A DNA stretch of 64,000 bases from Acidimicrobiia bacterium (GCA_041744375.1 JBGTLA010000109.1:4553-68552), one strand, 5' to 3'. Positions 20,664-43,015 are shown, numbered from the stretch's first letter. Made by a program: numbers and translations. Notes: generated from the sequence alone by a model not told the origin.

Positions 20664-20694
20664 CGCTTCCTTTCTCGTCGGGTGAACCTTGTGG

Positions 20695-27583: not shown

Positions 27584-28509
27584 GCCTGGGCGGCTCCGAC
27601 GCGCGGGTCGAGCACGGCGTAGAGCATGTCGACGACGAAATTGAGGACGACGAAAACCACGGCCGCCACCAGGATCCCGCCCTGGATCATGGGGAAGTCG
27701 CGGCTGGCGAGGGAGTCCAAGATGAGCTTGCCGATGCCCGGCCAGTTGAAGATCGCTTCCACCACCACCGCCCCGGCGAGAAGGAAACCGAGCTGAAGGC
27801 CGATGAGGGTGACGAGGGGTAGAGACGCCGCCTTGACGCCGTGGACGGTGAACACCCGCCAGGAAGGGAGGCCGCGAGCGCGGGCGGCCTTGATGTAGTC
27901 CTCGCGGAGGGTCTCAATGAACGATTGTCGGGCGGTGCGAATGAGGACGGGGCTGAGGGTGACGACGAGGGTGGTGACGGGGAGCACGAAGCTGCGCCAC
28001 CCACCCATGTCGATGGCGGGGAACCAACGCAGGTTGAGGGAGAACACGAGCACCAGCAGAACTGCCAGCCAGAAGGCGGGGGTGGCCTGGGCGATGGCCA
28101 CCCACCCCAAGATGAGACGGTCCAATAGGCCGGAGGGCCGCCAGGCTGCGACCGCTCCCAGCGCGACGGCCAACGTGGCCGACACGACCACGGTGATGCC
28201 GGCGAGGGCGAGGGTGTTGGGCAGGGCACCGAAGACAGCCGAGGCCACGGGTTGAGCTCCCCTGAATGAGGTGCCCAGGTCACCCTGCGCGGCGTTCCAC
28301 AAGTACTCGAAGTACTGGACGGCGACCGGCTTGTCCGTCCCGATCCGCTCGCGCGTCTGGGCGATGATGTCCTCGGGCGTGCCCGGCGGGTTGACGAGAC
28401 GGGCCGGGTCGCCGGTGGCGATACGCAATACGAAGAAGGCGATGGTGACCACTGCCAGCACCACCAGCACCATTTGGCCGAGGCGGATGAGGAGGACCCT
28501 CCCCCTCAT
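27580..28509 (-). CDS. Dpp/Opp-type ABC transporter permease (DppB-like)
   Basis: 309 aa. Typical N-terminal anchor and a binding-protein-dependent transport motif region. Confidence 0.85.
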   Translation of the reverse strand: MRGRVLLIRLGQMVLVVLAVVTIAFFVLRIATGDPARLVNPPGTPEDIIAQTRERIGTDKPVAVQYFEYLWNAAQGDLGTSFRGAQPVASAVFGALPNTLALAGITVVVSATLAVALGAVAAWRPSGLLDRLILGWVAIAQATPAFWLAVLLVLVFSLNLRWFPAIDMGGWRSFVLPVTTLVVTLSPVLIRTARQSFIETLREDYIKAARARGLPSWRVFTVHGVKAASLPLVTLIGLQLGFLLAGAVVVEAIFNWPGIGKLILDSLASRDFPMIQGGILVAAVVFVVLNFVVDMLYAVLDPRVGAAQA

Positions 28510-28551
28510 CCGCCGTTGCCTTGGTTCGAGCAGAAGCTCGAAGTCATCCGA

Positions 28552-30201
28552 TCAGCCGCCGAGGCTGGCCGGGTAGAAGTCGGTGCGGAACACATGTGGC
28601 TGGACCAAGATCCCCTGCAACTCGCTGGCATGTGCCAGCGTGAAGTCGGAGTTGTACAGCGGCACATGCCAGGCCTGCTCCCACATATGAGCCTGCAGCT
28701 CAGCGTAGATCTGTTCCCGCTCGGCCGGATCCAGGGTGGTGCGGCCCTGGGCGATGAGATCGTCGAGCTCCTCGTCGCCGAAGTACCAGGCGAACGCCGA
28801 GGAGTACACGGCCGCCGCCTGGTTGGGGTCTCCGGCACTGGCCCAGCTCAGGTGGTACATCGCTCCGGTGCCCGTCTCGCTGAAGGCGTCATCGATAAGG
28901 CCGGCCACGTCGCTTGTGACGACCGTCGCATTCAGTCCTACCGCCTGCATCTGGGCGACCATTGCCTCCACCACCGGGACGGCCCGGGGCAGGAACCCCT
29001 CGGCCACCCAGATCTCGAAGGGAGGTCCGCCGTCGGGCACTCCGGCAGCCTCGAGGGCGGCGGCGGCTCCCGCCGGGTCGGCCGTGAACGGCGGCTGCTG
29101 TTCCTGGTAGTAGAGGGTGTTGGTCGGCAAGAAGCTTCCAGCCGGGGCGCTGGCACCCATCACCAGGTTCTCGACCAGGGGGCCGCGGTCGAACGAGAGG
29201 TTGACGGCCCGACGGAAGTCGGCGTTCTCGTCCCAGATCGGCAGCCGACCCGGGCGCACATACAGGTTGACCGACTCGATGCCCGTGACGCCGATCAGCT
29301 CGATGCCCGCTTCGGCTTCGAGGATATCGAGGTGCTCGGGCGGGACTCGGTCGATGGCGTGGGCCTGGCCGTCCAACAGAGCGTCGAGGCGGGTCTGGGG
29401 ATCCTGGATGAACTCCCACACCAGCGTGTCGATGGTGGCCGGCTCCTGCCAGTAGTCGGAGTTGGGTTCCATCGTCTTGACGTTGACGGTGTCGGTCACG
29501 AGCCGGAACGGGCCCGTCCCGTTCGGGGAGCCGGCGAGCTGCTCCTCGTCGCCTTCCAGCCACTGGGCCGAGACGATGGGGGTCCACCACAACTCGACCA
29601 GGATGGGGGCGAAGGGCTCCTCGGTGGCAAGGCGCACCGTGTAGTCGTCGATGATCTCGACTTCGGCCGGCGCCCAGGTCAGGGCGTAAGCCGAGTCGCC
29701 GCTGAAGCCCGATGCCAGTTCTACCGAAGCTTTGACGTCGGCGGCGGTCAGGGGCTGACCGTCGTGGAACACGACGTCGTCGCGCAGCGTGAACTCCCAG
29801 GTGGTGTCGTCGATCTGCTCCCACGAAGTGGCCAGGCTCGGCTCGGGCTGGCTCAGGTCACCGGTGGGGAAGTCGACGAGGTAGTCATAGATCTGGCGCT
29901 CGAGCCGTTTCTGGCTGAGAGCCGTGGATGAATAGGGCGTCCAGTCCGCCCAGAAGTTCTCCGCCATCAGGAACCGGACGACCCCGTCGTCGTCGCCGTC
30001 CGGGTCGGGGGCGGCGGTGGTATCGGGGGTGTCGGGGGAGGGCGCCTCGGTAGTCGTAGGCGCCTCGGGGTCGGGCGAGGCGGCAGTGGTAGTTGTTTCG
30101 ACGCCGGTGTCGGCGGTGCAAGCGGCGATCACCAGACAGAGGATGGCGAAAAGACCGATCCGTCGTTGGAGTGACCCAGACCTTGACAGAATGCGCATCA
30201 T
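28552..30201 (-). CDS. ABC transporter substrate-binding lipoprotein, family 5 (peptide/nickel/opine type)
   Basis: 549 aa. Lipobox LVIAACTAD, a Thr/Pro/Asp-rich linker and an SBP_bac_5-like body. Confidence 0.85.
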   Translation of the reverse strand: MMRILSRSGSLQRRIGLFAILCLVIAACTADTGVETTTTAASPDPEAPTTTEAPSPDTPDTTAAPDPDGDDDGVVRFLMAENFWADWTPYSSTALSQKRLERQIYDYLVDFPTGDLSQPEPSLATSWEQIDDTTWEFTLRDDVVFHDGQPLTAADVKASVELASGFSGDSAYALTWAPAEVEIIDDYTVRLATEEPFAPILVELWWTPIVSAQWLEGDEEQLAGSPNGTGPFRLVTDTVNVKTMEPNSDYWQEPATIDTLVWEFIQDPQTRLDALLDGQAHAIDRVPPEHLDILEAEAGIELIGVTGIESVNLYVRPGRLPIWDENADFRRAVNLSFDRGPLVENLVMGASAPAGSFLPTNTLYYQEQQPPFTADPAGAAAALEAAGVPDGGPPFEIWVAEGFLPRAVPVVEAMVAQMQAVGLNATVVTSDVAGLIDDAFSETGTGAMYHLSWASAGDPNQAAAVYSSAFAWYFGDEELDDLIAQGRTTLDPAEREQIYAELQAHMWEQAWHVPLYNSDFTLAHASELQGILVQPHVFRTDFYPASLGG

Positions 30202-30238: not shown

Positions 30239-30437
30239 TGCTGAATGGTTCATACCACCCTCTGTTCCAGCTGTCAACGGATCCCCACTCCGGCGGTAAT
30301 GCGATTCGCTCCCAGGAAAGCGGCGGTGAAGAAGCTAGGACAGTGTTGAGCAAGTCGTTTCCGCCATCGCCGACAGTCCTCCTGCCAGGCACTGTGATGG
30401 GCCAGCGGTCGAACTTCCGCTCTTTTTCAACAACGTC

Positions 30438-31397
30438 CTAGTGGCGCGGGCGGATGCCGGAGTCGCTCCCACCGAGGATGGTCGCCACCTCGGCCGCCGA
30501 GAGGCCTTCGAGAGCTGCCTCCACAGAATCGACACCCATCGGGAAGGGCCAGTCGCTGCCGAACTCGACCGATTCGAGGCCGAAGGTGTCGACTACGTGG
30601 CGCAAGTACGAACGGTCGTGCACGACAGTGTCCACCGCGAAGCGACGCACCGCCTCACGGGGGGCGAGGGTGAGTGCCCCGAGGCCGAGCCGTCCCGTCG
30701 TCACCCCCCGCTCCCAGCGGCCCGCCAGGGCTGCAGTCGCTCCCCCGCCGTGGGCCAGCAGGATGCGCAGGTCGCGATGGCGACCCATCACGTCACCGAA
30801 CACCAGGTGGGCGGCCGCCACGGCCGTCTCATAGGGGTTGCCCACCAGGTTGCCGAGGTAGAAGTGGGCGAGTCGATCGTCGCGGCACTCACCAGGATGG
30901 ATGAACCCCGGCAGCGCCCGATCCTCCAGCACCTCCCACAGGGGGGCGTAGACCTCGTCCGAATAGACGAGGTCCCCGAGCTCGGTCCCGAGAGTTACCC
31001 CCGCCCATGAGTCGTCGAGGCCTGCCACCACCTCGGCAGCGAGGCGGGGCCGCTCGACGGGCACGTAGGCCATGGGCCGCAGACGCCCACCCGCACACGC
31101 CTCCACCAGGCCCTCGTTGACGAGAGTCACCCACCTCTCGGTATCACGGTCGCCAAGGTCGGGCCGGTAGAGGGGCGGGGGGGGCGAGACGAGCGCGCCC
31201 ACTAGCCCGTTGTCGTCGAGCCAACCGCTCAATACCTCAGAACGGGTGATGCGGTGCATGGCAAACCGAAGCATCGGTGTGACCAGGACGTCGCCGTCGA
31301 CGGCCATCCCATATCTTTGTCGCTTCGCCTCGTCGACGACCGAAGCTGGGACCAGGTGGGTGTGAACGTCCCATCCTCGGCGTTTCTCAGCGAGCAT
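30438..31397 (-). CDS. Amidohydrolase-2 family enzyme (ACMSD / hydroxy-aromatic acid decarboxylase type)
   Basis: HTHL metal-binding start, internal H/D ligand positions and a C-terminal FGSDWPF block typical of amidohydrolase_2. Start at the ATG after an aggaag sequence. Confidence 0.75.
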   Translation of the reverse strand: MLAEKRRGWDVHTHLVPASVVDEAKRQRYGMAVDGDVLVTPMLRFAMHRITRSEVLSGWLDDNGLVGALVSPPPPLYRPDLGDRDTERWVTLVNEGLVEACAGGRLRPMAYVPVERPRLAAEVVAGLDDSWAGVTLGTELGDLVYSDEVYAPLWEVLEDRALPGFIHPGECRDDRLAHFYLGNLVGNPYETAVAAAHLVFGDVMGRHRDLRILLAHGGGATAALAGRWERGVTTGRLGLGALTLAPREAVRRFAVDTVVHDRSYLRHVVDTFGLESVEFGSDWPFPMGVDSVEAALEGLSAAEVATILGGSDSGIRPRH

Positions 31398-31821
31398 CTT
31401 CCTCGTTCGTGTACCAGGACGGGACCTCGGGATAGTGGTGTCCGTCATACACCTCCAGGAGCACCGACGTCTCGTCGGCGACGGTGGGACCGTGAGTGCT
31501 TCCTTTGGGGTTCCAGTAGAAGTCACCCGGCTGCAAAGTGGTACCTGTGGGGATGTATCGGTAACGACCACTCAGGCAGTACATGAACTGGTTGGATGAG
31601 TGGACGTGTGCCGAAGGGATCCCCGATCCCTGTGCGAAGCGGACGAGGGCGATCGAGGCCCCCGAGTCCTCGTCGCGCCACAGCATCTTGTGCGAGAGGC
31701 CATCGAGGGACTTATCGATCCATTCCATGTCCCCGGTGTGCAACAGCACCTCCCGGAAGGAACCCATCGCTTCGACCGGAACCTCTCCGGCCGGTCCACC
31801 GAACGGGCTGACGTCACTCAC
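31387..31821 (-). CDS. Cupin-domain protein
   Basis: Single cupin barrel with His-rich motif block (HVHSSNQFMYCLSG...). GTG start chosen 7 nt before the upstream stop. Confidence 0.6.
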   Translation of the reverse strand: MSDVSPFGGPAGEVPVEAMGSFREVLLHTGDMEWIDKSLDGLSHKMLWRDEDSGASIALVRFAQGSGIPSAHVHSSNQFMYCLSGRYRYIPTGTTLQPGDFYWNPKGSTHGPTVADETSVLLEVYDGHHYPEVPSWYTNEEDAR

Positions 31822-32170
31822 CGGTCCACTCCTCTGTCTTGATCTCGATGAGGCGGCACCGATACGGAACGTCGGATACGTTGACCAGCCGGTGGACGGG
31901 CCCCTGTTCGCTGCGGACCACCACGTTCCCGGCCGGCTCGAACGTGTCGCGGGTATCACCGAAGATCGTTTGCACCTGGTTGGCGTCTCCGCCGAGAGAG
32001 ATGACGACGTAGGGGTGACGGTGGAAGTGGAACGGCTGAGAATCGCTCGGCTCGAGGGCGATTCCCCACACTCTTACCGAGTCGTCCTCATACAACAGGT
32101 CCTGGCCGACGTCGTCCAGATCTATGCCCTGGCGACTGGCTTCCACCAGCCCGAAACGGTCTTCGTTCAT
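31814..32170 (-). CDS. Cupin-domain protein
   Basis: 118 aa. FHFHRHPYVVISLGG motif 1 and a second His block. Confidence 0.65.
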   Translation of the reverse strand: MNEDRFGLVEASRQGIDLDDVGQDLLYEDDSVRVWGIALEPSDSQPFHFHRHPYVVISLGGDANQVQTIFGDTRDTFEPAGNVVVRSEQGPVHRLVNVSDVPYRCRLIEIKTEEWTGE

Positions 32171-33747
32171 ATCTCCTCCGTTGTGGATGGCCTTCCGGTG
32201 ATCGTGCGATAGACATCCTCGGCGACGCCGCCGCCCATCGGTGCGGTGGCGGCTACGTGCCCGTCGGGCCGGACCAGCACCGTCGTGTCGGGGGCGCAGC
32301 CGAACCGGGCCTGGACGAGGGATCCGACGTCGAGGAGCGTCCGTTCCCGGCGTCCGCCGTCGAGAGTGGCGTCCCAGCGAGAAACGACAAAATGCCCCAG
32401 GGCCGTCGTCGAGTCGGGGATCGTCGGGCGCCGCCGGGCGTCGGTGAAGTGGAAGGCTACGAAGCGGTCGGCCACCAGCTGATGAGTGCTCACGGTCCCC
32501 TCGTTGCGGCGGAGGACCATATCGGGGATGCGGTCGCCCACCCGCAGCGGAGAGAGCGCAGGACCGTCAGGAGTCAGGGCCCACTCTCCCGTCCCGGCGA
32601 CGTCGAGACGAACGGCCAGCATCGAGCGGGTCATGGCGTTGGCCCAGTCGTGGTCGGTCATGGCCGCCAGTGATTGGGACCGGCGGGCCATGTACTCAGA
32701 GGCCGCTTCGGCCATGGCGGCCGAGCCGTGCCGGGCCAGCGGACCCTGTTCGCGTTCGTAACCGTCGAGCAGGGAAGGTTCCGCCCAGCCCCGGGCCACC
32801 CATGCCAGCCGCCACGGCAGGTTGGAGGCGTCGAGAACACCGGTGTTGAGACCCAACGCCCACATCGGGGTGATGAGATGGGCGGCGTCGCCCATGAGGA
32901 AAACCCGACCGTCTCGCCACCGGTCGACGGATCGGGCGTGGACCGTATACTCGTAGGAACCCATCACCTCGAGCCGGTCTACATCCCCGATGTACTGGCG
33001 AGCCTTGGTGGCCAGGGCGGACTGGTCAAAGCCGGGTGAGTCGGCCTTGCGTGGGTAGAGAAACCGCCAGAACTCGGGTTGGCGCACCAGGACCATCCAC
33101 TCTTCGGGGTCGGCAAAATAGGCGAGGTAGGGGTAGTCGCGAGGATTGGCGACATCGAGGTCGACGGCCACGTCCACGAGCATGTACCGCTCCGGGAAGG
33201 TGGTGCCGCTCACCCCTACCCCGAGGCCCTTGCGGATGGTGGAGCGACCCCCATCACATGCCAGCAGGTAGGACGCCTCGATCTCGACCGAACCGTTCTC
33301 GGCCTGGGCCGACACCATGACATGATCCTCTCGGGCATCGAATGCCATCACCCGGTGGCCGAGGCGCAGCGCTCCCGGTGCCCTGACAGCCAATGCACCG
33401 GCCAGAACTGGCTCCAGAACGTGTTGGGGGATGTTGACCACGAACGGGTACCGGGTGTCGTCGCGCAGCAACCACGTCTTGATAGACCGCAGTGTCTGGC
33501 CACTGGCACGATCCACGTCGCCGATCTCGTCGATGCGCAGCGCCTGGGCCAAGACGTCATCGGCGACGCCGTAACGGTCGAGTACCTCGACGGTGCGGGT
33601 CAGGAGCGTCCCCGCCTTTGTTTCCCGGGAGAGTTCGGTGTCTTCTTCCAAGACGACCACGTCGAGACCGTAGTGCACGAGCCCGAGAGCAGTGATCAGA
33701 CCCACCGGACCGGCTCCGACCACCACGACGGGTCGAGCGGCCGTCAC
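32167..33747 (-). CDS. FAD-dependent aromatic-ring monooxygenase (PheA/TfdB-like hydroxylase)
   Basis: VVVVGAGPVGLITALGL dinucleotide fold; a DG and GD FAD motif (FLMGDAAH); C-terminal thioredoxin-like dimerisation region. GTG start overlaps the upstream TGA; the track ORF has a 158-aa spurious extension. Confidence 0.8.
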   Translation of the reverse strand: MTAARPVVVVGAGPVGLITALGLVHYGLDVVVLEEDTELSRETKAGTLLTRTVEVLDRYGVADDVLAQALRIDEIGDVDRASGQTLRSIKTWLLRDDTRYPFVVNIPQHVLEPVLAGALAVRAPGALRLGHRVMAFDAREDHVMVSAQAENGSVEIEASYLLACDGGRSTIRKGLGVGVSGTTFPERYMLVDVAVDLDVANPRDYPYLAYFADPEEWMVLVRQPEFWRFLYPRKADSPGFDQSALATKARQYIGDVDRLEVMGSYEYTVHARSVDRWRDGRVFLMGDAAHLITPMWALGLNTGVLDASNLPWRLAWVARGWAEPSLLDGYEREQGPLARHGSAAMAEAASEYMARRSQSLAAMTDHDWANAMTRSMLAVRLDVAGTGEWALTPDGPALSPLRVGDRIPDMVLRRNEGTVSTHQLVADRFVAFHFTDARRRPTIPDSTTALGHFVVSRWDATLDGGRRERTLLDVGSLVQARFGCAPDTTVLVRPDGHVAATAPMGGGVAEDVYRTITGRPSTTEEI

Positions 33748-34469
33748 GTCTCCACCTCGAGTGCTCGCTCGCGACTCAGGGAAGAGGCGGCCATCGTGGC
33801 GGCGTCCGACAGAAGGAAGAGGATGGGTTGGACCACGTCTTCGGGCCTGCCCACCCCCACCGTGGCAGCCCAGTGCCGGCGCTCGGACTCGTCGTTGGCG
33901 GCCCGATACTGTCGGGTGTCGACCACGCCGGGGGAAACGAGGTGGACCCGCACGCCCGACCTGGATACCTCGGCGGCGAGGGTACGGGCAAGGCCGTGGG
34001 CGGCGGCCTTGGTGGTGGAGTAGGCGGCCGCCCCCGGCCACCCGGACAGGGCGATGCCGGAGGTGAACATCACCACCGCTCCGCGCCCGGCGTCCACCAT
34101 GGCCGGGACAAAAGCCTGACACGTCCACAGGATCCCCTCGAGGTTGACAGCCTGGACCCTCCGCCATTCTTCGGCATCGACTTCGAGCACACGCCCGCGC
34201 GGCTGGATGACGGCGCCGCACACCAATCCCGTCACTAGACCCAACCCCGCTGCGACGGCGCCGGCGGCTTCGACCACGGCGGTGCGGTCGGAGACGTCCA
34301 CCCGGTGGTAGTCGATTTGTTCGTGGAGATCGTGGGGGCGGGTGTCAACGTCGAGAACGGCCACGGAAGCCCCCACGGCAAGTGCTGCTTCGGCCACCGC
34401 CCGGGAGATGCCGTTGGCGCCTCCCGTCACGACCACCACGTCACCGGCCCCGTCGAAGGTGGCTTTCAT
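33744..34469 (-). CDS. SDR-family oxidoreductase
   Basis: TGGANGIS Rossmann motif; YSTTKAA catalytic YxxxK. Confidence 0.85.
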   Translation of the reverse strand: MKATFDGAGDVVVVTGGANGISRAVAEAALAVGASVAVLDVDTRPHDLHEQIDYHRVDVSDRTAVVEAAGAVAAGLGLVTGLVCGAVIQPRGRVLEVDAEEWRRVQAVNLEGILWTCQAFVPAMVDAGRGAVVMFTSGIALSGWPGAAAYSTTKAAAHGLARTLAAEVSRSGVRVHLVSPGVVDTRQYRAANDESERRHWAATVGVGRPEDVVQPILFLLSDAATMAASSLSRERALEVET

Positions 34470-35158
34470 GCAGAGCCCTCGTCTGAGATATGGGCGGCCA
34501 TTCGTTCAGCGGCGCGGTTGAGATGGGCGACCAGTGCCTTGCCGGCTCGATGACGGTCGTTGGCCTGGCAGGCTTCGAGGATGGGATTGTGCTCGTGATA
34601 CGAGACCTGTTGCTCGTCGCGCCCGGATGGGTAGGTGAATCGATATCGCTCGCTATTACGCCACACCGCTTCGATGGCATGCATCAGCCATTTCGACCCC
34701 GCCGATCGGTAGAGGGTGAAGTGGGCCTCGGTGTGGGCCTCGCGCGCTTCGACGATCTTGCCGGCCTGGGCGAATTCCACATATCGTTGGAGCCACTGTT
34801 GTGTCTCCTTGGCGGCCTCGGGGGTGAAGGCCGCGGCTGCTTTCTCCACTGCAGCCCGTTCCAGCAAGCGGCGGGTCTCCATCGTGTCCTCGAAGTCGGC
34901 CCGGCTGAGCGTGCGCACGAAAGCGCCCCGACGCGGGTGCACCTCGACCAGGCCGAGGGACTCGAGGCGGCGCAGGGCCTCGCGTACAGGCATCATGCTC
35001 ATGTCCAGTTTCGCCGCCAGGTCGACCAGGCGGAGATGCGACCCGGCGGGAACCTCGCCTGCGACAATTGCCTGGTGGAGGTGGGCGGCCGCCTGCTCGG
35101 CCATGGTCGGGCGGTCGTTGCGGGAAGTCGCGCCCCGGCTCCCGGACACGTCAGGCAC
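34466..35158 (-). CDS. GntR-family transcriptional regulator (FadR/FCD subfamily)
   Basis: N-terminal wHTH (LRLVDLAAKLDMSMMPVREALRRLESLGLV) with a helical FCD C-terminal domain. The start may be the internal Met18. Confidence 0.8.
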   Translation of the reverse strand: MPDVSGSRGATSRNDRPTMAEQAAAHLHQAIVAGEVPAGSHLRLVDLAAKLDMSMMPVREALRRLESLGLVEVHPRRGAFVRTLSRADFEDTMETRRLLERAAVEKAAAAFTPEAAKETQQWLQRYVEFAQAGKIVEAREAHTEAHFTLYRSAGSKWLMHAIEAVWRNSERYRFTYPSGRDEQQVSYHEHNPILEACQANDRHRAGKALVAHLNRAAERMAAHISDEGSA

Positions 35159-35555
35159 GATCGGAGACGACGGCGATGGCGTTCATCTCGATGAGGTAGT
35201 CGGGCGACGTGAACTTGGTCACCTCGACCATGGTCGAGGCGGGGGCAACGCCGGTGAAGTACTCGGCGCGCACGGCGTGGATGGCATCGAAATGCTCCAT
35301 ATTGCGGATGTAGACGTCGACCCGACAGATGTCTTCGAGCGTGCCACCCGCCTCCTCGACCGCCGCCTTCAGATTTTCGCACACCTGGCGAGCCTGTGCC
35401 GTCACGTCGCCCACCCCGGCGATGGTTCCGTCGGGCCGGCGCGAGGTCATCCCCGAGATGAAGACCAGCCTGCCCGAGCCCTCGGCTTCGACTGCCTGAG
35501 AGAAGTGTCCGTTCGGTTCGCTGAGCCGGTTCGTTCGTATCTCACGTTTCGGCAT
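35151..35555 (-). CDS. RidA/YjgF-family (enamine/imine deaminase-like) protein
   Basis: 134 aa. Motifs GVGDVTAQARQVCENL...RVDVYI...VEV. Confidence 0.85.
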   Translation of the reverse strand: MPKREIRTNRLSEPNGHFSQAVEAEGSGRLVFISGMTSRRPDGTIAGVGDVTAQARQVCENLKAAVEEAGGTLEDICRVDVYIRNMEHFDAIHAVRAEYFTGVAPASTMVEVTKFTSPDYLIEMNAIAVVSDRA

Positions 35556-36648
35556 CGGCTCCTCCTTCGGATGGATGAATGAATTCCAGGGCGGGCGCTT
35601 CGGCGCCGACCCGGCCGGCCGTCTCGATGAGGGCCGCCACCACCGACCGTTCCAATCGGGCTACTCCTGCCGCCAGGTGCCGACGTTCGAAAGCCGGTTG
35701 GCCGGGGCTATACACCCTCTCGTGGCCTGCAGCGGGAGCAGAGCCGCGTAGGCGCTCCGCCGCTGCCGCCACCTCCTCTTCCAGCTCGGAAAGGGGCCGG
35801 AAGAAGGAAGCGTCGATGGCAGCAAAGAGGTGGGAGGAGTCGTAGGGAACAGCCGGATCGCCGTAGAGCGGAGCGACGGCGTCACCCCACGCCCCCGAGG
35901 ACAGGGAACCGGCCAACAGGTCGAGCATGAACGCCAGCCCGAAGCCTTTGTGACCGCCGGCCGGCAACAGCATGCCGGCAATGGCCTGGGCGGGGTCGGT
36001 GGTGGGGCGACCACTGGCGTCGGTCGCCCACGTCGGGGGTATCTCCCGGCCCGCCTGGTCAGCCATGCGCACCTTTCCCATCGCCGCCTCGCTGAGGGCG
36101 ACGTCGAGAACCACCGGTATCTCCCCGGTTGACGGCAGGGCGATGGCAAGGGGGTTGTTGCCCACCATCCGCTCCGCCCCGCCCGGGGCCGGCATGAGCG
36201 GCCGGGTGTTGCACGAGGCGAAACCGACGCAGCCGGCGGCGGTGGCGGCAAGGGCGTAGCGCCGGGCCATGCCGAAATGGAAACCGTGGCGAACGGTCAC
36301 CAACCCGAGGCCATACGCCTGAGCCTTGGCAACGGCGATCCTCATCGCCTCGTCTCCGCTCACCTGGCCGAACCCATGGCGACCGTCGAGCACAGCCACC
36401 GCCGCCCGGTCGACGACGATCTCGGGTCGGGCCACGGGGTCGACCGATCCGGCCAAGACCCGATCCACATACATCGGGACGAGCATGACCCCATGCGACG
36501 ACACACCTTCCAGGTCGGCGTCGACCAGGCTCTCGGCGACGGTACGGGCGGTATCAGCGTCGGCGCCGGCCGCCTCGAAGAGCGCCGACACCGTGGCTAT
36601 GAGCGAGTGGGCAACCACCGCCACACGAGGCGACTCGAGGGTCGTCAC
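35542..36648 (-). CDS. Ldh_2-family (malate/L-lactate/imine-acid reductase type) oxidoreductase
   Basis: 368 aa. GVSSHGV and GNNPLAIALP blocks characteristic of the Ldh_2 family. Confidence 0.8.
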   Translation of the reverse strand: MTTLESPRVAVVAHSLIATVSALFEAAGADADTARTVAESLVDADLEGVSSHGVMLVPMYVDRVLAGSVDPVARPEIVVDRAAVAVLDGRHGFGQVSGDEAMRIAVAKAQAYGLGLVTVRHGFHFGMARRYALAATAAGCVGFASCNTRPLMPAPGGAERMVGNNPLAIALPSTGEIPVVLDVALSEAAMGKVRMADQAGREIPPTWATDASGRPTTDPAQAIAGMLLPAGGHKGFGLAFMLDLLAGSLSSGAWGDAVAPLYGDPAVPYDSSHLFAAIDASFFRPLSELEEEVAAAAERLRGSAPAAGHERVYSPGQPAFERRHLAAGVARLERSVVAALIETAGRVGAEAPALEFIHPSEGGADAET

Positions 36649-37472
36649 ACTTGTTCCTCAGCCCACGGCACCAGCCACCTTTCGACGGCGGTGAGGGCGT
36701 AGTACAACACGATCGAGATGATGGCGAGGAAGGCCAGGGCAGCGAACGCCAACGACGTGTCGGCGGTGCCGCCGGAGATCACGATCAGGTAGCCAAGACC
36801 TTTTGTGGCACCCACAAACTCGCCGATCACGGCTCCGATGACTGCCAGCGAGATGGCGAGCTTCAAGCCGACGAAGAGATGGGGCAAGGCCGAGGGCAGA
36901 CGCACTTTGCGGAAAGCCTGGAAGGGGGTGGCTTCGAGCGACCGGATCAGCTCGCGCAGTTCCTCGGGAGTGGACTTGACCCCCGCCGCCGTCGACAGGA
37001 CGATCGGGAAAAAGCACAACAGCACGACCATCACGATCTTGGGGAGAACACCAAAGCCCATCCAGATGACCAGGAGGGGTGCGACTGCGATCTTAGGGAC
37101 GGCATTGAACCCGAAGAGGATCGGCGAGAACATCCGGTCGAAGATCCACGAGTAGGCGAGGGCAACGCCCAGCGGGACGCCGATCACCACCGCCAGAACG
37201 AATCCGGCCACCGTCTCCCACACCGTCACCCAGGTGTTGGAGATCATGATGTCCCATTTGTCGACGATCGTCGTCACGACGTCGGCCGGCGAGGGGAGGA
37301 TGAACGAGTTCCAGCCCGTGATGATCTTTACGAGCCACCAGCCACCGAGCAGCACGACCAAGCCGACCAAAGGAAGAACGATGGGAAGCATTCGGCTCCG
37401 TCGCTGTGCGGCCGCCCGGTCGGGAGCAGCCGCCTTCTCGGCGGCGGTGACGGAAGCCGAGTCGAAGGTCAC
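36645..37472 (-). CDS. NitT/TauT-family ABC transporter permease
   Basis: 275 aa, 6 TM, EAA-type loop (LEATPFQAFRKVRLPSALP). Confidence 0.8.
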   Translation of the reverse strand: MTFDSASVTAAEKAAAPDRAAAQRRSRMLPIVLPLVGLVVLLGGWWLVKIITGWNSFILPSPADVVTTIVDKWDIMISNTWVTVWETVAGFVLAVVIGVPLGVALAYSWIFDRMFSPILFGFNAVPKIAVAPLLVIWMGFGVLPKIVMVVLLCFFPIVLSTAAGVKSTPEELRELIRSLEATPFQAFRKVRLPSALPHLFVGLKLAISLAVIGAVIGEFVGATKGLGYLIVISGGTADTSLAFAALAFLAIISIVLYYALTAVERWLVPWAEEQV

Positions 37473-38239
37473 GATGCCTCCGCTCCGGGTGTCTCGAACA
37501 AGAGGTCGCGGAGGGCGGCCGCATACCCGGACAGGGTCTCGGTGTGGGCGGTTTGCCCCAGGCTGCGTGGCCGGGGAACGTCGACCTCGACGATCTGGCG
37601 AATCTGGCCGGGACGCGGGGTCATGACCGCCACCCGGTCGGCCAGAATCACGGCTTCGTCGATCGAGTGGGTGACGAACACCACGGTCTGACCGCTGGCG
37701 GCGCAGATGCGCTGCAGCTCCATCGACAGCTCCTCACGCGTAAGGGCATCGAGGGCCGCGAATGGCTCGTCCATCAACAACACCTCGGGGTCGTACACGA
37801 GGGAGCGACACAACGAGGCCCGCTGCTGCATGCCACCCGAAAGTTCCCGGGGCAGTCGAGTAGCGAATTCGGTGAGACCGGTCGTCTCCAACAACTCCCC
37901 GGCTTTGCGCCGGTACGGGTCAGAATCGCCGTCCATCAACTCGATGGGCAGCATGACGTTCTCGAAGACCGTTCTCCACGGCAGCAAGGCCGGACGCTGA
38001 AACATCACGGCCACCCCCCGGCGGGGTTTCTCCACCAGGCGTCCACCCACCGTCACCTTCCCGCCAGTAGGCGGGACGAGCCCGGCGATGATACGTAACA
38101 GGGTCGACTTGCCGCAGCCCGACCGGCCGACGAGGGTGAGAAACTCACCCTCGTCGACCTGCAGGTCGATGCCGCGGAGGGCTTCGACGGCGCCTTCATT
38201 GGTGGAGAACGCCTTCGAAACCTGCTCGACCGAGATCAT
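37469..38239 (-). CDS. NitT/TauT-family ABC transporter ATP-binding protein
   Basis: GRSGCGKST, LSGGMQQR, LLMDEPFAALD. Confidence 0.85.
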   Translation of the reverse strand: MISVEQVSKAFSTNEGAVEALRGIDLQVDEGEFLTLVGRSGCGKSTLLRIIAGLVPPTGGKVTVGGRLVEKPRRGVAVMFQRPALLPWRTVFENVMLPIELMDGDSDPYRRKAGELLETTGLTEFATRLPRELSGGMQQRASLCRSLVYDPEVLLMDEPFAALDALTREELSMELQRICAASGQTVVFVTHSIDEAVILADRVAVMTPRPGQIRQIVEVDVPRPRSLGQTAHTETLSGYAAALRDLLFETPGAEAS

Positions 38240-38240
38240 G

Positions 38241-39359
38241 TCAGCCGCCGGCTACAAAACCGGGGGCGAAGACGTCGTCCACCGTCACCTCGTTCTCCAG
38301 GGCTCCGGCCTCGGACAGCTGGTCGATGATCGTCTGCACCTTGGCCGGGTCGATGCTGCCGATCGGGCCGGCGAAACCCTCCGGCATGACATAAGGTGCC
38401 ATGATGTCCACCTCTCCGGCGGCGACCACGGCGCTCTGCTCGGGCACGGCCGCCTCGAGGATGGCCCCCGTCTCCTCGGGGTTCTGGATCGAGTACTCGA
38501 GGCCCCGCAGCAGCGCCGAAATGAACCTCTCGACGACCTCGGGTTGCTCGTCGATCATGTCCTGGCGAGCGAGGATGAGGTTGCCGTACAGGTCCGGCAG
38601 GTATTCGCTGTAGGGGAAGAAAACGGCGGTGTCTCCGGTGGCCGCCTCGATCAGTCCCTTCCCGACCACGAATTGCCCGATGTAGTCGACCTCACCGGAA
38701 GCCAGCAGGCGGGGCAGGTCGGGCGGGGGGGCGGGGACGAACTCGACGGTCGAGTCGTCGAAACCGGCCGCATCGGCGAAGAAGGGAAAGAGGATGCGAA
38801 CCGTGGAACCGGCGGCATCGGCGAAGGTCTTACCCGCCAGGTCGGTCACCTCGGAGATCCCTGTCGACTCCGTGGTGGCGATGGCGGCGAGGGTGTTTTG
38901 CTGGATAGCAGCCACCCCCTTCACCTCGAGTCCTTGGTTGGCGATGGTCAAGATGGCGGTTGCGGCGTCGCCAGGTCCGAAGTCCGCCGTGCCGGCGGCG
39001 ATGAAGCGCATCACGTCGACAGTGCCCGAACCGGGACTGATGGTCACGTCGAGACCCACCTCGTCGAAGTAACCCAATTCCTGGGCGACGTATACGTAGG
39101 CATCCCGGCCGAAGGTGCTGAACGAGGTGAGATAGTCGATCGACACCCTCTCGACCGGCGCCGTCGTGTCGGGTGGGGTGGTCGTCTCGGGCGGCGTCGT
39201 CGTGTGGGCGGTGGTGTCGGGAGTGTCGGGTGCTGCGGTGGTGGTGGGGGCCGCGGGGGCCGTTGTGTCTGGGGTGCCAGAATCGCCACAGGCTGCTGCG
39301 ACCAGGGCGATGGCAAGCATGAGAACCAGCACCTTCAGCGGTGATGAGATCCGTTGCAT
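38241..39359 (-). CDS. NMT1/THI5-like (SsuA/ThiY-type) ABC transporter substrate-binding lipoprotein
   Basis: Lipobox LVAAACGD, a Thr/Pro-rich linker and an NMT1-like periplasmic-binding-protein body. Confidence 0.75.
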   Translation of the reverse strand: MQRISSPLKVLVLMLAIALVAAACGDSGTPDTTAPAAPTTTAAPDTPDTTAHTTTPPETTTPPDTTAPVERVSIDYLTSFSTFGRDAYVYVAQELGYFDEVGLDVTISPGSGTVDVMRFIAAGTADFGPGDAATAILTIANQGLEVKGVAAIQQNTLAAIATTESTGISEVTDLAGKTFADAAGSTVRILFPFFADAAGFDDSTVEFVPAPPPDLPRLLASGEVDYIGQFVVGKGLIEAATGDTAVFFPYSEYLPDLYGNLILARQDMIDEQPEVVERFISALLRGLEYSIQNPEETGAILEAAVPEQSAVVAAGEVDIMAPYVMPEGFAGPIGSIDPAKVQTIIDQLSEAGALENEVTVDDVFAPGFVAGG

Positions 39360-39424
39360 TATGATCCTTCCTGATAATCGCGTCGCCGTTTCTCCCTGGT
39401 GGGAAACTTGACGCCCGGCTTGAT

Positions 39425-39441
39425 TTGATCAAAGATATATC
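39425..39441. promoter_or_regulatory. Two adjacent perfect palindromes, TTGATCAA and GATATATC, in the AT-rich divergent promoter region between the NitT/TauT operon and the P450 operon
   Basis: Read from the sequence. Strongly AT-rich against a 70% GC background. Confidence 0.3.
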
Positions 39442-39579
39442 ATCAATGAGGCTCTGGCAACTCGGTGGTGCAAGGACAGTCTTGAACAAATCGTTCCAGT
39501 CTTGGGGGCTAGTCCTCCTAACTGGGACCTTGCCGAGTTTCAGGTCGGCTTTCACTGCTATTCAACACCGTCCAAGTCC

Positions 39580-40815
39580 ATGATCGGCTCCTGTCCTCTT
39601 CGTTTCGACCCCCTCTCACCCGACCAGCTCGCCGACCCCTATCCGACATACGCCTCCTTACGTGAGCGGTCTCCGGTTCATTACGAGCCCGAGCATGACC
39701 TTTGGATCGTATCCCGTCACGAAGACGTGGTGGCGGTCTCTCTCAACACGGCAGACTTCTCTTCTGTCGGGTCCGTGCAGTCGACCACGACACCCTATCC
39801 GGACGAGGTGCAGGAGGTGCTGGCGGGAGGAATCGGAGAGATGATCTGGATGACCGCATCCGACGATCCCGATCATCGACGCGTGCGCGGCCTTATCAAT
39901 CGAGTGTTCACCCCCAAGCGGGTACGCGATCTCGAACCCCAGATCGAACGGTATGTCCATGCTCTCATCGATGAGTTCGCCGGTGACGGTCGCGCCGACA
40001 TCATCGAACGGTTTGCCTGGCCGTTGCCCCTGTGGGGGTTAGTCGAAATCCTGGGGATCCCGCGCAGTGATCTGGAGCGGCTCCACAAGTGGAGTTACGA
40101 GTGGCTGCGCCTCATGCAGGTGACAGACCCCCTCGACCAGCTCGTCGCCTACGCCCACAGCTTCGTGGAACTTCAGCACTACGTTCTCGATGCGCTCCAC
40201 CGTCGCCAGGCCGAGCCCACCGACGACCTCATGACCGGTCTCCTCGAGGCGCGTCTCACCGTGGACCCTCCCCTGTCGGTCACCCAGTTGGCGTGGGTGC
40301 CCATGAACTTGATCGTGGCCGGCCACGTCACCGTGACCCGTGCCATCGGGAGCGGTCTGGTCTCGTTGATCGACCGGCCGGAACAGATGGAGAAGGTCCG
40401 GAAAGCGTCCGACGGGGTGATGGCCAACGCTGTCGAAGAGATCCTGCGCTACGAGTCTCCCGCCCAGGGCCTATTCCGGACAGCCCTGCGAGACGTGGAG
40501 ATCGCCGGGACTGTGATCCCCGAGGGGGCCAAGGTCATGGTTCATTACGGCTCCGCCAATCGCGACCCGGCGCTCTTCGACGGTCCCGCCGAGTTCCGCA
40601 TCGACCGTCCCGACGTTCGTCACCACGTGGCGTTTGGCAAGGGTGCCCACTTCTGCGTGGGTGCCCCGCTGGCACGGGCCGAGCTGAAGCACTCCTTTCG
40701 GGGTCTCCTCGATCGGCTTCCCGGTCTGCGTCGGGCCGGGGAAGGCACTCGAGACACCATCTTTTTCGCCCGGGGGTGGTCGAGCCTCCCCCTGGCGTGG
40801 GATCCTCCCCGATGA
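39580..40815 (+). CDS. Cytochrome P450
   Basis: Heme-ligand loop FGKGAHFCVGAPLA, EXXR (EEILRYES) and I-helix region. The start at 39580 is uncertain; the track begins at 39502. Confidence 0.85.
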   Translation: MIGSCPLRFDPLSPDQLADPYPTYASLRERSPVHYEPEHDLWIVSRHEDVVAVSLNTADFSSVGSVQSTTTPYPDEVQEVLAGGIGEMIWMTASDDPDHRRVRGLINRVFTPKRVRDLEPQIERYVHALIDEFAGDGRADIIERFAWPLPLWGLVEILGIPRSDLERLHKWSYEWLRLMQVTDPLDQLVAYAHSFVELQHYVLDALHRRQAEPTDDLMTGLLEARLTVDPPLSVTQLAWVPMNLIVAGHVTVTRAIGSGLVSLIDRPEQMEKVRKASDGVMANAVEEILRYESPAQGLFRTALRDVEIAGTVIPEGAKVMVHYGSANRDPALFDGPAEFRIDRPDVRHHVAFGKGAHFCVGAPLARAELKHSFRGLLDRLPGLRRAGEGTRDTIFFARGWSSLPLAWDPPR

Positions 40816-41624
40816 CCTCACCGGTGCATGTCTTCACGGTGGTCGACGGCCGCCGGCTCCATCACCTCGACTACGGAGGGGAGGGACCACCCATCGTGCT
40901 CGTCCACGGTGTCCTCGGAAACGCCTGGATGTGGAGCGGGGTTGCTGGCCGTCTGACGGGCCACGGCCGGGTGATCGCTCTCGACCTCCGGGGCTACGGA
41001 GACTCGCAGTGGTCGGTGGAGGGAGCCGATCCGACCACCGCCCACGCCTCCGACCTGGCTGGTCTGGCCGACGCCCATGGATGGCCCTCGATCACTCTCG
41101 TCGGATTCTCGCTCGGGGGACTCGTCGGATTGGCCCTCTGGGAGCTCCGGCCTGAGCTCGTGACACGCTTGGTGATGGTCGACCTGGCTCCCTCCTCAAC
41201 CCGCACCGAGACAGATGTGCAACCGATCCCGATGACTGTCGCCGGCCATGCTGAGGCGGTGGCGGTCGAACGGGCCGGCCTGCCTCACACCTCCGACGAA
41301 CTGGTTGAGGTGATGGCCGGCCACGGCTGGAGACCGGGTACCGACGGGATGCTGGTGCGCAAACACCATCCTGGCATCGCCTCGCGCTGGCGTTTTCGCA
41401 GCGAAGATTGGTGGCACACGGTGGATCGATTCGAGCCACCCCTCTTGTTCGTCCACGCCCCCGACAGCCCCGTCTGTCCGCCCGCCGAGGCGGGCGCGGT
41501 TGCCGAGCGAGCGCGCCGTGGCCACATGGTCGCGGTGAGCGGATCCGGCCACCTCATCCCTCTCGAGCAGCCGGACGCCTTTGTCGCCCACGTGATCGAG
41601 TTCTTGGACGACTCTGTTGCCTAG
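40812..41624 (+). CDS. Alpha/beta-fold hydrolase
   Basis: 270 aa. PIVLVHGVLGN and the GFSLGG nucleophile elbow. ATGA overlap with the P450 stop. Confidence 0.8.
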   Translation: MTSPVHVFTVVDGRRLHHLDYGGEGPPIVLVHGVLGNAWMWSGVAGRLTGHGRVIALDLRGYGDSQWSVEGADPTTAHASDLAGLADAHGWPSITLVGFSLGGLVGLALWELRPELVTRLVMVDLAPSSTRTETDVQPIPMTVAGHAEAVAVERAGLPHTSDELVEVMAGHGWRPGTDGMLVRKHHPGIASRWRFRSEDWWHTVDRFEPPLLFVHAPDSPVCPPAEAGAVAERARRGHMVAVSGSGHLIPLEQPDAFVAHVIEFLDDSVA

Positions 41625-42360
41625 CAGCGTCGTGATCGTCACGGGCGGAGCCAAAGGCATCGGCCTCGCCTATGTGAAAGGCCTCGCTGCCCGGGGACAC
41701 CGGATCGTCGTCGCCGACCTCAGCAATGGCAGCGAGGCAGTGGCGACGGCACGCGCCGCGGGAGCCGAAGCGATCTCGGTGGTCGTCGACGTGGCGGATG
41801 AAACAGCCACCGACGCCATGGCCACGGCCACGCTCGAACGTTTCGGCCGCATCGACGCCCTCGTCAACAATGCCGGCTACTTCAGCCAGATCCACAAGAC
41901 CACTTTCGACCAACTCACAGTCGAAGAATGGGACAGGGTCTTCGCCGTGAACGTCCGTGGAACCTGGTTGTGCGCCAAAGCTGTGGCTCCCGCCATGAAG
42001 GCCCAGGGCTCGGGACGCATCATCAACACCTCGTCGATGACGGTCCCCACCGGAGTGCCCCATTTTCTGCACTACGTTGCCTCCAAGTCGGCGATCGTCG
42101 GTCTGACCCGCTCCCTCGCCAGAGAGTTGGGCGAGTTCGGGATCTCCGTCAACACCGTCAGCCCCGACTACATCCCCCACGATCGCGACTATGCGGGCCG
42201 CCAGCCGGAAATGGCCGAGTTCATCCGCAACCAGCGCTGCTTCGCGCGCGATCAAGAACCCGAGGACATGGTGGGCGTGGTGGCCTTCTTGGTGTCGCCG
42301 GACTCAGACTTCATCACGGGTCAGAACTTCTACGTCAACGGAGGCCGGTGGTTTGGCTGA
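41617..42360 (+). CDS. SDR-family oxidoreductase
   Basis: TGGAKGIG and YVASK motifs. TTG start overlaps the upstream stop. Confidence 0.85.
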   Translation: MPSSVVIVTGGAKGIGLAYVKGLAARGHRIVVADLSNGSEAVATARAAGAEAISVVVDVADETATDAMATATLERFGRIDALVNNAGYFSQIHKTTFDQLTVEEWDRVFAVNVRGTWLCAKAVAPAMKAQGSGRIINTSSMTVPTGVPHFLHYVASKSAIVGLTRSLARELGEFGISVNTVSPDYIPHDRDYAGRQPEMAEFIRNQRCFARDQEPEDMVGVVAFLVSPDSDFITGQNFYVNGGRWFG

Positions 42361-42366
42361 CCGGGC

Positions 42367-42966
42367 TCAGCTCTCGATGGGGCGACCAAACGTGACGGCG
42401 TCGAGGACCGGCGGCGGGGCGGTGCGGCGATAGGCGCCGTCGGGGTGGGCTCCCAGGGCGTCGTTGACGGTAGAAAAGGCGATGCGCAGGGCCACGTACG
42501 TGGTCATGGCGAAGATCTGCTGGTCCTCGAAGCCGGCTTCTCGCAATGCCCGCACATCGCCCTCGTCGATGCCGTTGGGATCCCGGGTGACCTTGCGAGC
42601 CCAGTCGGCCATGACTTGCTCGGGCGACGTGAGACCAGCGTCGTGCGCCAACAAGACCCCGGCGGCAGTGTCGGCACCGGCTGCTGCAGCCAGCCTCGAA
42701 CCCCAGGCCAGCGAGCAGTAAGAATCGCCCAGGGTGGAAGCGGAGGCCGTCACCAGGATGGCCCGCTGACGCACGGTCAACCCACCGGCCTTGGTCACTG
42801 CCTCCATCAGCTCGAATAGGCCCTCGTGCGTCTCCGGCTGGTAGCCCCACAGGCGAGACGAATTCATGACATACCCGACCTCTTCGATGTCCTCGTCGAA
42901 TATGGCCCGGACCGCCGGGGTCGTCGCGGGCGCCGAGAGGAAGAGCGTTTGCTTTCTGGTCGACAA
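42367..42966 (-). CDS. Carboxymuconolactone decarboxylase (AhpD-like) family protein
   Basis: 199 aa, all-helical. A CxxxH-like region (CSLAWGSRL) resembles the AhpD/CMD core. Confidence 0.65.
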   Translation of the reverse strand: MSTRKQTLFLSAPATTPAVRAIFDEDIEEVGYVMNSSRLWGYQPETHEGLFELMEAVTKAGGLTVRQRAILVTASASTLGDSYCSLAWGSRLAAAAGADTAAGVLLAHDAGLTSPEQVMADWARKVTRDPNGIDEGDVRALREAGFEDQQIFAMTTYVALRIAFSTVNDALGAHPDGAYRRTAPPPVLDAVTFGRPIES

Positions 42967-43015
42967 TGCAACTCCTCTGATTGGGACGGAGTCAGTATCC
43001 CACCGGCCGACCTAC

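Follow-up and report, generated by a model that had tools for sequence, protein, structure and literature searches.

The operon described here comprises eleven co-directional genes on the minus strand, running from position 39359 down to 30438 of a 64,000-nucleotide stretch of DNA from an Acidimicrobiia bacterium (GCA_041744375.1, JBGTLA010000109.1:4553-68552), which is referred to at its full length as the window. Judged from the protein families that it encodes, the operon has about an even chance of serving the substrate-inducible breakdown of a hydroxy-aromatic carboxylic acid with a nitrogen that would be either an amino group on a hydroxybenzoate or the ring atom of a hydroxypyridine-type acid. 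In order of transcription, the genes encode the binding protein, ATPase, and permease of an ABC importer, an Ldh_2-family oxidoreductase, a Rid-family protein, a GntR/FCD regulator, a short-chain dehydrogenase/reductase (SDR), an FAD-dependent monooxygenase, two small cupins (cupin 1 and cupin 2), and an amidohydrolase. Pfam and NCBIfam searches confirmed each family named in an initial annotation of the same DNA, and the gene list and single-operon layout given there were likewise reproduced. The window copy is one ordinary member, lacking an FAH-family gene, of a module that is spread across several bacterial phyla.

The recurrence of the module was traced first through homologs of the amidohydrolase, which led to loci with the same families in Pelagibacterium, Kribbella, and Bradyrhizobium. 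The Cupin_7 protein (cupin 2), which is the best conserved of the set, served as a marker and gave at least about 590 confirmed matches in a collection holding one genome per species; 80 of these loci were compared by tblastn with the window proteins. With shuffled gene orders, the same families occur together in more than 80 loci from several phyla, a grouping far beyond chance. Carriers among the Actinomycetota include Kribbella, Phytohabitans, Micromonospora, Actinomadura, Streptosporangium, Microbacterium, and Georgenia, and those among the Alphaproteobacteria include Rhodoplanes, Devosia, Cucumibacter, and Azospirillaceae; the module is also found in Trueperaceae, Solirubrobacterales, Bosea, Phreatobacter, and on plasmids of Mesorhizobium loti and Agrobacterium. 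When 33 representative loci were clustered by family, 31 contained Ldh_2, and Rid, Cupin_7, and the amidohydrolase were each present in 28; these four genes form the conserved core. Most module loci also contain an FAH-family gene. Kribbella lacks cupin 1, and its cluster ends instead with a quinone-oxidoreductase-like gene, while three Phytohabitans loci (L019, L020, and L030) hold only the four core genes, which represent either the smallest working form of the module or the remains of a decaying one.

The amidohydrolase (30438-31397; Amidohydro_2, PF04909, 9e-18) belongs to the ACMSD clade by sequence and predicted fold and is probably a metal-dependent decarboxylase. Human ACMSD ranked first in a single-sequence search (5e-23), and the alignment matched the HxH motif, His174, His224, Asp291, and Arg235 of the human enzyme. 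A profile built from 38 orthologs scored human ACMSD at 202 bits (residues 8-315) and Pseudomonas ACMSD at 175 bits, in both cases over the full length, followed by IDCase at 124, LigW at 98, gamma-RSD at 82, and the hydratase LigJ at 50 bits. The best fold match of an AlphaFold (AF2) model with a pLDDT of 95.9 was also ACMSD (TM score 0.84-0.86), with IDCase next, and among the orthologs D10, H12, H14, H167, H216, D282, and the dimer-interface residue R227 are invariant or nearly so. The ACMSD-type assignment made in the initial annotation is thus borne out by profile, fold, and catalytic residues, and the comparison of clades places the enzyme with ACMSD and not with a hydratase. Identity to ACMSD is just 23-24%, and the orthologs do not keep the Arg that pairs with human R47, whereas a different Arg, R78, is invariant in them. 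The enzyme may therefore act on a compound other than ACMS.

Cupin 2 (31387-31821; 126-144 aa; Pfam Cupin_7/DUF4437, 4e-16) is proposed from its sequence to be a metal-dependent C-C cleaving oxygenase. Its residues H54, H56, Q60, and H92, a 3-His/Gln site with Gln at the usual Glu position, are invariant in 80 orthologs, which are 53-87% identical across phyla and share a conserved C-terminal tail, YDGPHYP..P.WY..EDA. Matches at the Pfam level are solely to Cupin_7, Cupin_2, and DUF4437. A profile search of the PDB gave only weak relatives, namely a ChrR-type cupin (31 bits), KdgF (26), and 2,4'-dihydroxyacetophenone dioxygenase (21), and neither HAAO nor gentisate dioxygenase was among the matches. 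The 2,4'-dihydroxyacetophenone dioxygenase and ChrR-type cupins have the same Pfam family, Cupin_7, and a 3-His metal site, and some sources name cupin 2 orthologs after the former enzyme; compared with these solved members, to which the scores are low, cupin 2 is set apart by its YDGPHYP...WY..EDA tail and by the replacement of Glu by Gln.

Cupin 1 (31814-32170; 118 aa) has no match in Pfam or NCBIfam and is placed by its profile in the AzcA family, with PDB 9u8n (AzcA) at 79 bits (E 2e-21, identity about 30%), together with two uncharacterized structural-genomics proteins. AzcA (PDB 9u8n-9u8p), described in the title of the 9u8n entry as a cupin forming a triazine, belongs to the same small-cupin family and has the same HxH...H positions; it is biosynthetic, unlike the setting proposed for cupin 1, and a literature search found no usable paper on AzcA/9u8n or on 5-azacytidine biosynthesis. 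In cupin 1, H48 and H50 are invariant, and H93 is invariant in 12 aligned sequences and kept in at least 80% of 32 sequences, with E or Q in a few fused forms. Both cupins therefore retain His-based sites, which answers the doubt raised in the initial annotation as to whether such a metal site is present. Their identity as HAAO, which that annotation had proposed to check, is ruled out by the Pfam results and the PDB profile searches: one is a Cupin_7/DUF4437 protein and the other a small cupin of the AzcA family.

Gene fusions connect the cupins with each other and with the FAH-family protein. Cupin 1 and cupin 2 are fused into a single protein of 256-284 aa in many Alphaproteobacteria and in Trueperaceae, and an FAH domain is fused to Cupin_7 in a 437-aa protein of Devosia and in two JGI metagenome proteins; cupin 1, Cupin_7, and FAH would accordingly act together or on successive intermediates. 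In a structural model of a fused bicupin, the N-terminal domain superposes on 9u8n with a root-mean-square deviation of 1.0 Å over 93 residues, and the likeness to salicylate and gentisate dioxygenases is at the level of a generic bicupin fold.

The Rid-family protein (35151-35555; Ribonuc_L-PSP, 7e-27) belongs to a very abundant family (5288 clusters at E <= 1e-20). Its orthologs are 62-87% identical, and its retention in 28 of the 33 representative loci points to a release of nitrogen. A PAST motif aligns with PARS of E. coli RidA, which puts Ser in place of Arg105, and this PAST/Ser feature is invariant in 78 orthologs. Arg105 is needed by canonical RidA imine deaminases; about 10% of the RidA-subfamily proteins carry Ser at this site and are of unknown function, and Rid subfamilies without Arg105 are thought not to be imine hydrolases (PMC4433059). 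Of the RidA deaminase reported in the initial annotation, the presence of a Rid-family protein thus holds, while the catalytic Arg is replaced by an invariant Ser. A second Rid gene in the window (62385-62780, minus strand), about 32% identical to the module Rid orthologs, adjoins a PALP enzyme (61442-62395, plus strand); the pairing of this Rid with a pyridoxal phosphate-dependent enzyme is a classical RidA context, in contrast to that of the operon copy.

An ACMSD-like decarboxylase, a Rid protein, and a ring-cleaving metalloenzyme side by side are also characteristic of the nba, amn, and kynurenine systems, which follow the same logic of cleavage, decarboxylation, and deamination. It is nevertheless unlikely that the operon is a true nba/amn-type module for 3-hydroxyanthranilate or 2-aminophenol, in which the cupins would be 3-hydroxyanthranilate 3,4-dioxygenase (HAAO), the amidohydrolase ACMSD, and the Rid protein 2-aminomuconate deaminase. 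Over its full length, the amidohydrolase indeed has no closer characterized relative than ACMSD, the operon includes a Rid-family protein, a nitrogen-carrying carboxylate would suit the transporters found with the module, and the flavin hydroxylase could make 3-hydroxyanthranilate from anthranilate. The ring-cleaving dioxygenase of those systems, however, is of the HAAO or AmnAB (LigB) type, and here it is neither, as no match to the HAAO family was obtained for either cupin. According to Pfam, no Aldedh or FAH-superfamily member occurs among the eleven operon genes, so that neither an aminomuconate-semialdehyde dehydrogenase nor a gene of the 4-oxalocrotonate decarboxylase/hydratase type was found (an aldolase was not searched for); the Aldedh gene in the window sits in the next operon, at 20695-22140. 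Where nba/amn systems have their usual lower pathway, the module has Ldh_2 and, in other genomes, a COG0179-type FAH. Moreover, the amidohydrolase is distant in sequence from ACMSD, the sources of 120 Rid orthologs give them generic RidA names and never that of aminomuconate deaminase, and kynurenine-pathway genes do not recur near the module in the 33 representative loci. The resemblance to nba/amn modules noted in the initial annotation is consequently one of shared logic and not of membership, in view of the dioxygenase family and of the absence of semialdehyde dehydrogenase and FAH-superfamily genes.

The FAD monooxygenase (32167-33747; FAD_binding_3, 3.7e-65, and Rng_hyd_C, 5e-07) is a group A aromatic hydroxylase of the PheA/TfdB/MhpA type, in which the FAD-binding domain is followed by a C-terminal thioredoxin-like domain. 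Its best PDB match is the p-nitrophenol monooxygenase PnpA (1.5e-42), its nearest NCBIfam subfamilies, PRK08132 and the MhpA type, both fall below cutoff, and its orthologs are 55-64% identical. The SDR (33744-34469; adh_short, 2e-41) is adjacent to the hydroxylase in every locus having the pair, and both are jointly absent from Pelagibacterium, Devosia, Cucumibacter, Bosea, Phreatobacter, Phytohabitans, and one Micromonospora, a pattern by which the two appear to be a detachable feeder pair.

Further signs of an aromatic substrate come from other carriers. The nearest relatives of the FAH orthologs are OPET decarboxylase, HpcE, and 2,4-diketo-acid hydrolase, which are enzymes of ring-fission-type products. 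On the Agrobacterium plasmid pQ15_94_2, a complete module lies beside the alpha and beta subunits of a benzoate/anthranilate-type Rieske dioxygenase with ferredoxin and reductase, as well as an isochorismatase-family hydrolase, an SDR, and a MarR regulator; the aromatic substrate suggested in the initial annotation fits this one neighborhood. A shorter module on the Mesorhizobium loti plasmid adjoins SRPBCC, 2Fe-2S, and FAD-binding genes, annotations typical of molybdenum hydroxylase subunits, but this neighbor was set aside as weak evidence because no large subunit is listed.

Ldh_2 (35542-36648; Pfam Ldh_2, 5e-108, 361 bits) is an NAD(P) oxidoreductase that, compared with the PDB, is closest to type-2 malate/lactate dehydrogenase (210 bits) and sulfolactate dehydrogenase (182), followed by the ureidoglycolate dehydrogenase AllD (162) and the imine reductase DpkA (114). 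Since DpkA scores below the malate, sulfolactate, and AllD enzymes, the label of imino-acid-type reductase given in the initial annotation is not favored, and the protein stands nearer to the 2-hydroxyacid dehydrogenases.

This likeness to AllD, sulfolactate, and malate dehydrogenases would also suit a pathway with no ring cleavage at all, acting on an aliphatic or partly saturated nitrogen compound of a ureido, imino-acid, or opine-like kind, with Ldh_2 oxidizing a 2-hydroxy or 2-amino acid, Rid dealing with the imine, and the cupins serving as an aminohydrolase or isomerase as in ureidoglycine and ureidoglycolate metabolism. Such a pathway is rather unlikely. It would agree with the recurrence of the four core genes without the hydroxylase, with the placing of cupin 1 in the AzcA family, whose triazine formation (by PDB title) is N-heterocycle chemistry, and with the frequent clustering of Rid genes with amine-oxidizing flavoenzymes (PMC4433059), given that several module loci have a CrtO-like FAD oxidoreductase close by. 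On the other hand, a hydroxylase of the PheA/TfdB type, an ACMSD-clade enzyme, an FAH of the HpcE/OPET type, and a neighboring Rieske dioxygenase are all typical of aromatic catabolism, and allantoinase, amidase, and aminotransferase do not recur in the module among the 33 representative loci.

The importer encoded by the first three genes is of the NitT/TauT type and consists of an NMT1/THI5-like binding protein (38241-39359; Pfam NMT1, 3e-40) with its cognate ATPase (37469-38239; ABC_tran, 6e-33) and permease (36645-37472; BPD_transp_1, 1e-34). The binding protein has a lipoprotein-like N-terminus and a Pro/Thr-rich linker, and the PDB entries closest to it are 4nmy and the FAMP-binding protein ThiY (3ix1); orthologs of 45-70% identity occur in the actinobacterial copies of the module. 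The nearest NCBIfam models are of the nitrate/taurine/sulfonate type for the ATPase and TauC/SsuC-like for the permease, all below cutoff. The coupling of an NMT1-type transporter to the enzyme set, as stated in the initial annotation, is supported by the presence of such a transporter beside the module across many taxa. A TctC-family binding protein whose sequence is 59-70% identical from one genome to another stands beside the module in Bradyrhizobium, Rhodoplanes, Bosea, and Phreatobacter, and the recurrence of TctC-family and NMT1-type binding proteins indicates a carboxylate substrate. According to the PDB matches, the ligands known for NMT1-type binding proteins are of the pyrimidine type.

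That last observation bears on the possibility that the substrate contains no nitrogen and is an acid of the gentisate, 2,3-dihydroxybenzoate, or hydroxyquinol type, with Rid serving as a tautomerase or accessory protein, which is considered quite unlikely. In the gentisate pathway, a flavin hydroxylase feeds a cupin dioxygenase, an FAH-family maleyl- or fumarylpyruvate hydrolase cuts the product, and fused bicupins exist; hydroxylase, cupin dioxygenase, and FAH hydrolase make up the classic gentisate layout, to which those of the module correspond. The FAH-cupin fusion would suit cleavage followed directly by hydrolysis, ACMSD-like decarboxylases also act on nitrogen-free products of the 3-carboxymuconate type, and the Rid protein lacks Arg105. 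The arguments to the contrary are that Cupin_7 has no detectable sequence relation to gentisate dioxygenase, that the decarboxylase, Rid, and Ldh_2 are extra to the gentisate pathway, that the pyrimidine-type ligands of NMT1-type proteins contain nitrogen, and that the high frequency and identity of Rid among the module loci suggest an essential catalytic step. A biosynthetic cluster for a small N-heterocyclic natural product, which the biosynthetic role of AzcA as the closest solved relative of cupin 1 and the divergently transcribed P450 gene might recall, is very improbable given the importer-type ABC system with its binding lipoprotein, the GntR/FCD regulator, the absence of core biosynthetic enzymes from the operon, and a very wide distribution that includes plasmids beside catabolic dioxygenases.

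The catabolism of a nitrogen-bearing hydroxy-aromatic acid can be outlined as a series of steps, all of them inferred from protein families, fusions, and genomic context. The NMT1-type ABC importer would take up the acid, in whose presence the GntR/FCD protein would leave the promoter. The SDR and the flavin monooxygenase would then add a second hydroxyl to a less oxidized precursor, yielding a dihydroxy or amino-hydroxy substrate for ring cleavage, and genomes that import the core substrate directly could dispense with this pair. The 3-His/Gln Cupin_7 protein and its AzcA-like cupin partner are envisaged to split a C-C bond with O2, after which the ACMSD-like enzyme would decarboxylate an open-chain amino-carboxy-dienoate or, less likely, the ring before its cleavage. 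The Ser-type Rid would hydrolyze the enamine or imine to a 2-oxo or beta-oxo acid and ammonia. In most genomes, FAH would cut or decarboxylate the oxo acid; in the window, which lacks it, this step may be encoded elsewhere in the genome, be performed by another hydrolase, or not take place at all. Finally, Ldh_2 may interconvert the resulting 2-oxo and 2-hydroxy acids.

Several observations weigh against this scheme. The operon contains only one nitrogen-specific enzyme, the Rid protein, and its Ser in place of Arg105 is at odds with the proposed imine hydrolysis. The oxygenase activity of Cupin_7 is assumed, as the protein is without a near relative of known function and its best PDB matches reach just 21-31 bits. 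The role of Ldh_2 is vague, and tblastn with three FAH orthologs found none in the 64-kb window. The minimal Phytohabitans copies have neither transporter nor hydroxylase, and in L020, the one whose flanks were inspected, the surroundings contain IS4-type transposase fragments, a diacylglycerol kinase, and ABC ATPases and no pathway genes. Lastly, a literature search found nothing on the gene combination, the module, or the Cupin_7/DUF4437 subgroup, and no member of the module is characterized.

Among characterized routes, those for pyridine carboxylates (pic and nic) likewise process an N-heteroaromatic acid with a flavin hydroxylase, a decarboxylase of the amidohydrolase_2 family, and an Fe enzyme that cleaves the ring; PicC, the 3,6-dihydroxypicolinate decarboxylase, is an amidohydrolase_2 protein. 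The genes of molybdenum-hydroxylase type beside the Mesorhizobium plasmid copy, among which the large subunit was not seen, are a further point of likeness to these routes. They have no role for Rid, Ldh_2, or FAH, however, and the operon has no NicX/Hpo-type dioxygenase, deformylase, maleamate amidase, or isomerase. The closest functional analogy, drawn from its published description, is the mab pathway of Comamonas sp. QT12, in which 3-aminobenzoate is converted to 5-aminosalicylate and then to cis-ACOHDA, followed by deamination and hydrolysis (PMC9584955), so that an FAD hydroxylase, a ring-cleaving dioxygenase, a deaminase, and a C-C hydrolase act on an amino-hydroxybenzoate. No ACMSD-like or Ldh_2 enzyme is described there (PMC9584955), and the window lacks the hydrolase. 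The kpi pathway for 4-hydroxypyridine in Arthrobacter sp. IN13 is described as proceeding through a flavin monooxygenase, oxidative ring opening, an imine, and an FAH-family acylpyruvate hydrolase (PMC7356986). KpiC is an Amidohydro_1 protein (PF01979) and is itself the dioxygenase, whereas the window enzyme belongs to PF04909, and kpi was therefore ruled out as the matching family; the words "cupin" and "RidA" are absent from the whole text of the paper, in which Ldh_2 was not searched for (PMC7356986).

The junctions of the operon are mostly overlaps. From the binding-protein gene onward, the first five comprise a 1-nt spacer, overlaps of 4, 4, and 14 nt, and an 8-nt overlap or 46-nt gap, and the last five comprise overlaps of 4, 4, and 4 nt, an 8-nt overlap or 46-nt gap, and an 11-nt overlap; the choice between overlap and gap at two junctions depends on the start codon taken. 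Gene starts were compared with those called independently on an identical metagenome contig (Logan assemblies of SRR28170462/3). The open reading frames of 377 aa for the amidohydrolase and 684 aa for the hydroxylase given in the initial annotation were over-extended, since the independent call gives 319 aa, from ATG 31397, and 526 aa, from GTG 33747. The same call agrees with a 212-aa GntR/FCD regulator (34466-35104, with an alternative GTG start at 35158; GntR, 2e-17, and FCD, 9e-21), which is probably the substrate-responsive repressor of the operon.

The predicted promoter/operator region (39360-39500, minus strand) is shared with the divergent P450 gene. A TTGATCAA palindrome lies there within an AT-rich stretch, and the 143 bp that precede the first gene contain the sigma-70-like site TTGCCA-17-TATCTT (39460-39432), the only one on the operon strand; on both strands, two such sites were observed in the region against 0.9 expected. 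A 24-nt motif, GAACGAYTTGYTCAASACTGTCCT, has two copies on the minus strand, one upstream of this operon (39473-39496) and the other upstream of the next minus-strand operon (30337-30360), and belongs to a stretch of roughly 50 nt that is alike in both places and also takes in AGGAGGACT. None is expected by chance, and the two copies thus suggest that both operons share a regulator. No inverted repeat was detected by the tool used, and the motif was not found in 88 other loci.

The operon that follows (17956-30201, minus strand) encodes an SBP_bac_5 binding protein, two permeases (one of them fused to an ATPase), an ATPase, a GFO/IDH/MocA oxidoreductase, an IclR regulator, a creatininase-family hydrolase, an aldehyde dehydrogenase, a class III aminotransferase, and an M81 (MlrC-like) peptidase. 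This set appears to be a unit for using a peptide or amide conjugate and is possibly co-regulated with the module operon. A link between the module and this neighboring Dpp-type transporter through an SBP_bac_5 gene of Pelagibacterium was ruled out, as the proteins are just 25% identical. On the other side, divergent from the module operon, lie genes for a P450, a weakly PcaD-like alpha/beta hydrolase, and a second SDR (39502-42360, plus strand), followed by a CMD-family protein and an MFS transporter (42367-44257, minus strand). The divergent alpha/beta hydrolase might stand in for the missing FAH. P450 homologs are also found near the module in two other loci, L009 and L018.

Additional genes accompany the module in other genomes. 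A CrtO/CrtI-like NAD(P)/FAD oxidoreductase of 505-548 aa lies by the module in L009 (537-2183), L012, L022, L037, L058, L087 (two copies), and L088, which include Actinomycetota and rhizobial plasmids, with 34-42% identity between them; the identification of the 548-aa flavoprotein as an amine oxidase was rejected, its nearest models being of the CrtO/CrtI type and far below cutoff. In Bosea (L090 and L091, 12310-12878), an FMN_red-type flavin reductase gene is situated between the amidohydrolase and ABC genes, with a homolog in Rhodoplanes (L039), and these loci lack a flavin monooxygenase partner. In Phreatobacter stygius (L092, 3659-8175), NrtR-nadA-nadB-nadC, for the synthesis of NAD from aspartate, are directly beside the module, an arrangement seen in one of 93 sequences and hence probably coincidental. 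Elsewhere in the window, adenylate/guanylate cyclase domains occur in three minus-strand proteins (4926-6236, 8584-9921, and 10612-14271), two of which are fused to an N-terminal alpha/beta hydrolase, while the third, of 1219 aa, combines a zinc ribbon, cyclase, AAA_16, and TPR. A possible carotenoid or isoprenoid locus (44456-48299, minus strand) encodes a polyprenyl synthetase and a 736-aa amine-oxidase/phytoene-desaturase-like flavoprotein.

In its broadest form, the proposal of an N-aromatic catabolic unit would make the module a widespread new ring-cleavage pathway, in which the Cupin_7/AzcA-like pair replaces HAAO, AmnAB, NicX, and gentisate dioxygenase, the Ser-type Rid is the dedicated deaminase, and Ldh_2 ends the route; this is entertained tentatively, at rather less than even confidence. 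The substrate would then be a common environmental N-aromatic acid of poorly known catabolism, such as an aminohydroxybenzoate that arises from p-aminobenzoate or anthranilate, or a hydroxypyridine carboxylate formed in the turnover of NAD or vitamins. Because the module is compact, occurs in culturable strains, and has fusions that mark adjacent steps, its substrate is directly testable. If the proposal is correct, it would provide the first functions for the YDGPHYP-tailed Cupin_7/DUF4437 proteins, for AzcA-like cupins outside biosynthesis, and for the Ser-variant Rid proteins, a group for which the Rid field still seeks a role. It would also mean that hundreds of soil and marine species, including Kribbella, Actinomadura, Bosea, Bradyrhizobium, Rhodoplanes, Pelagibacterium, and uncultured Actinomycetota, share a route for an N-aromatic acid that no annotation captures.

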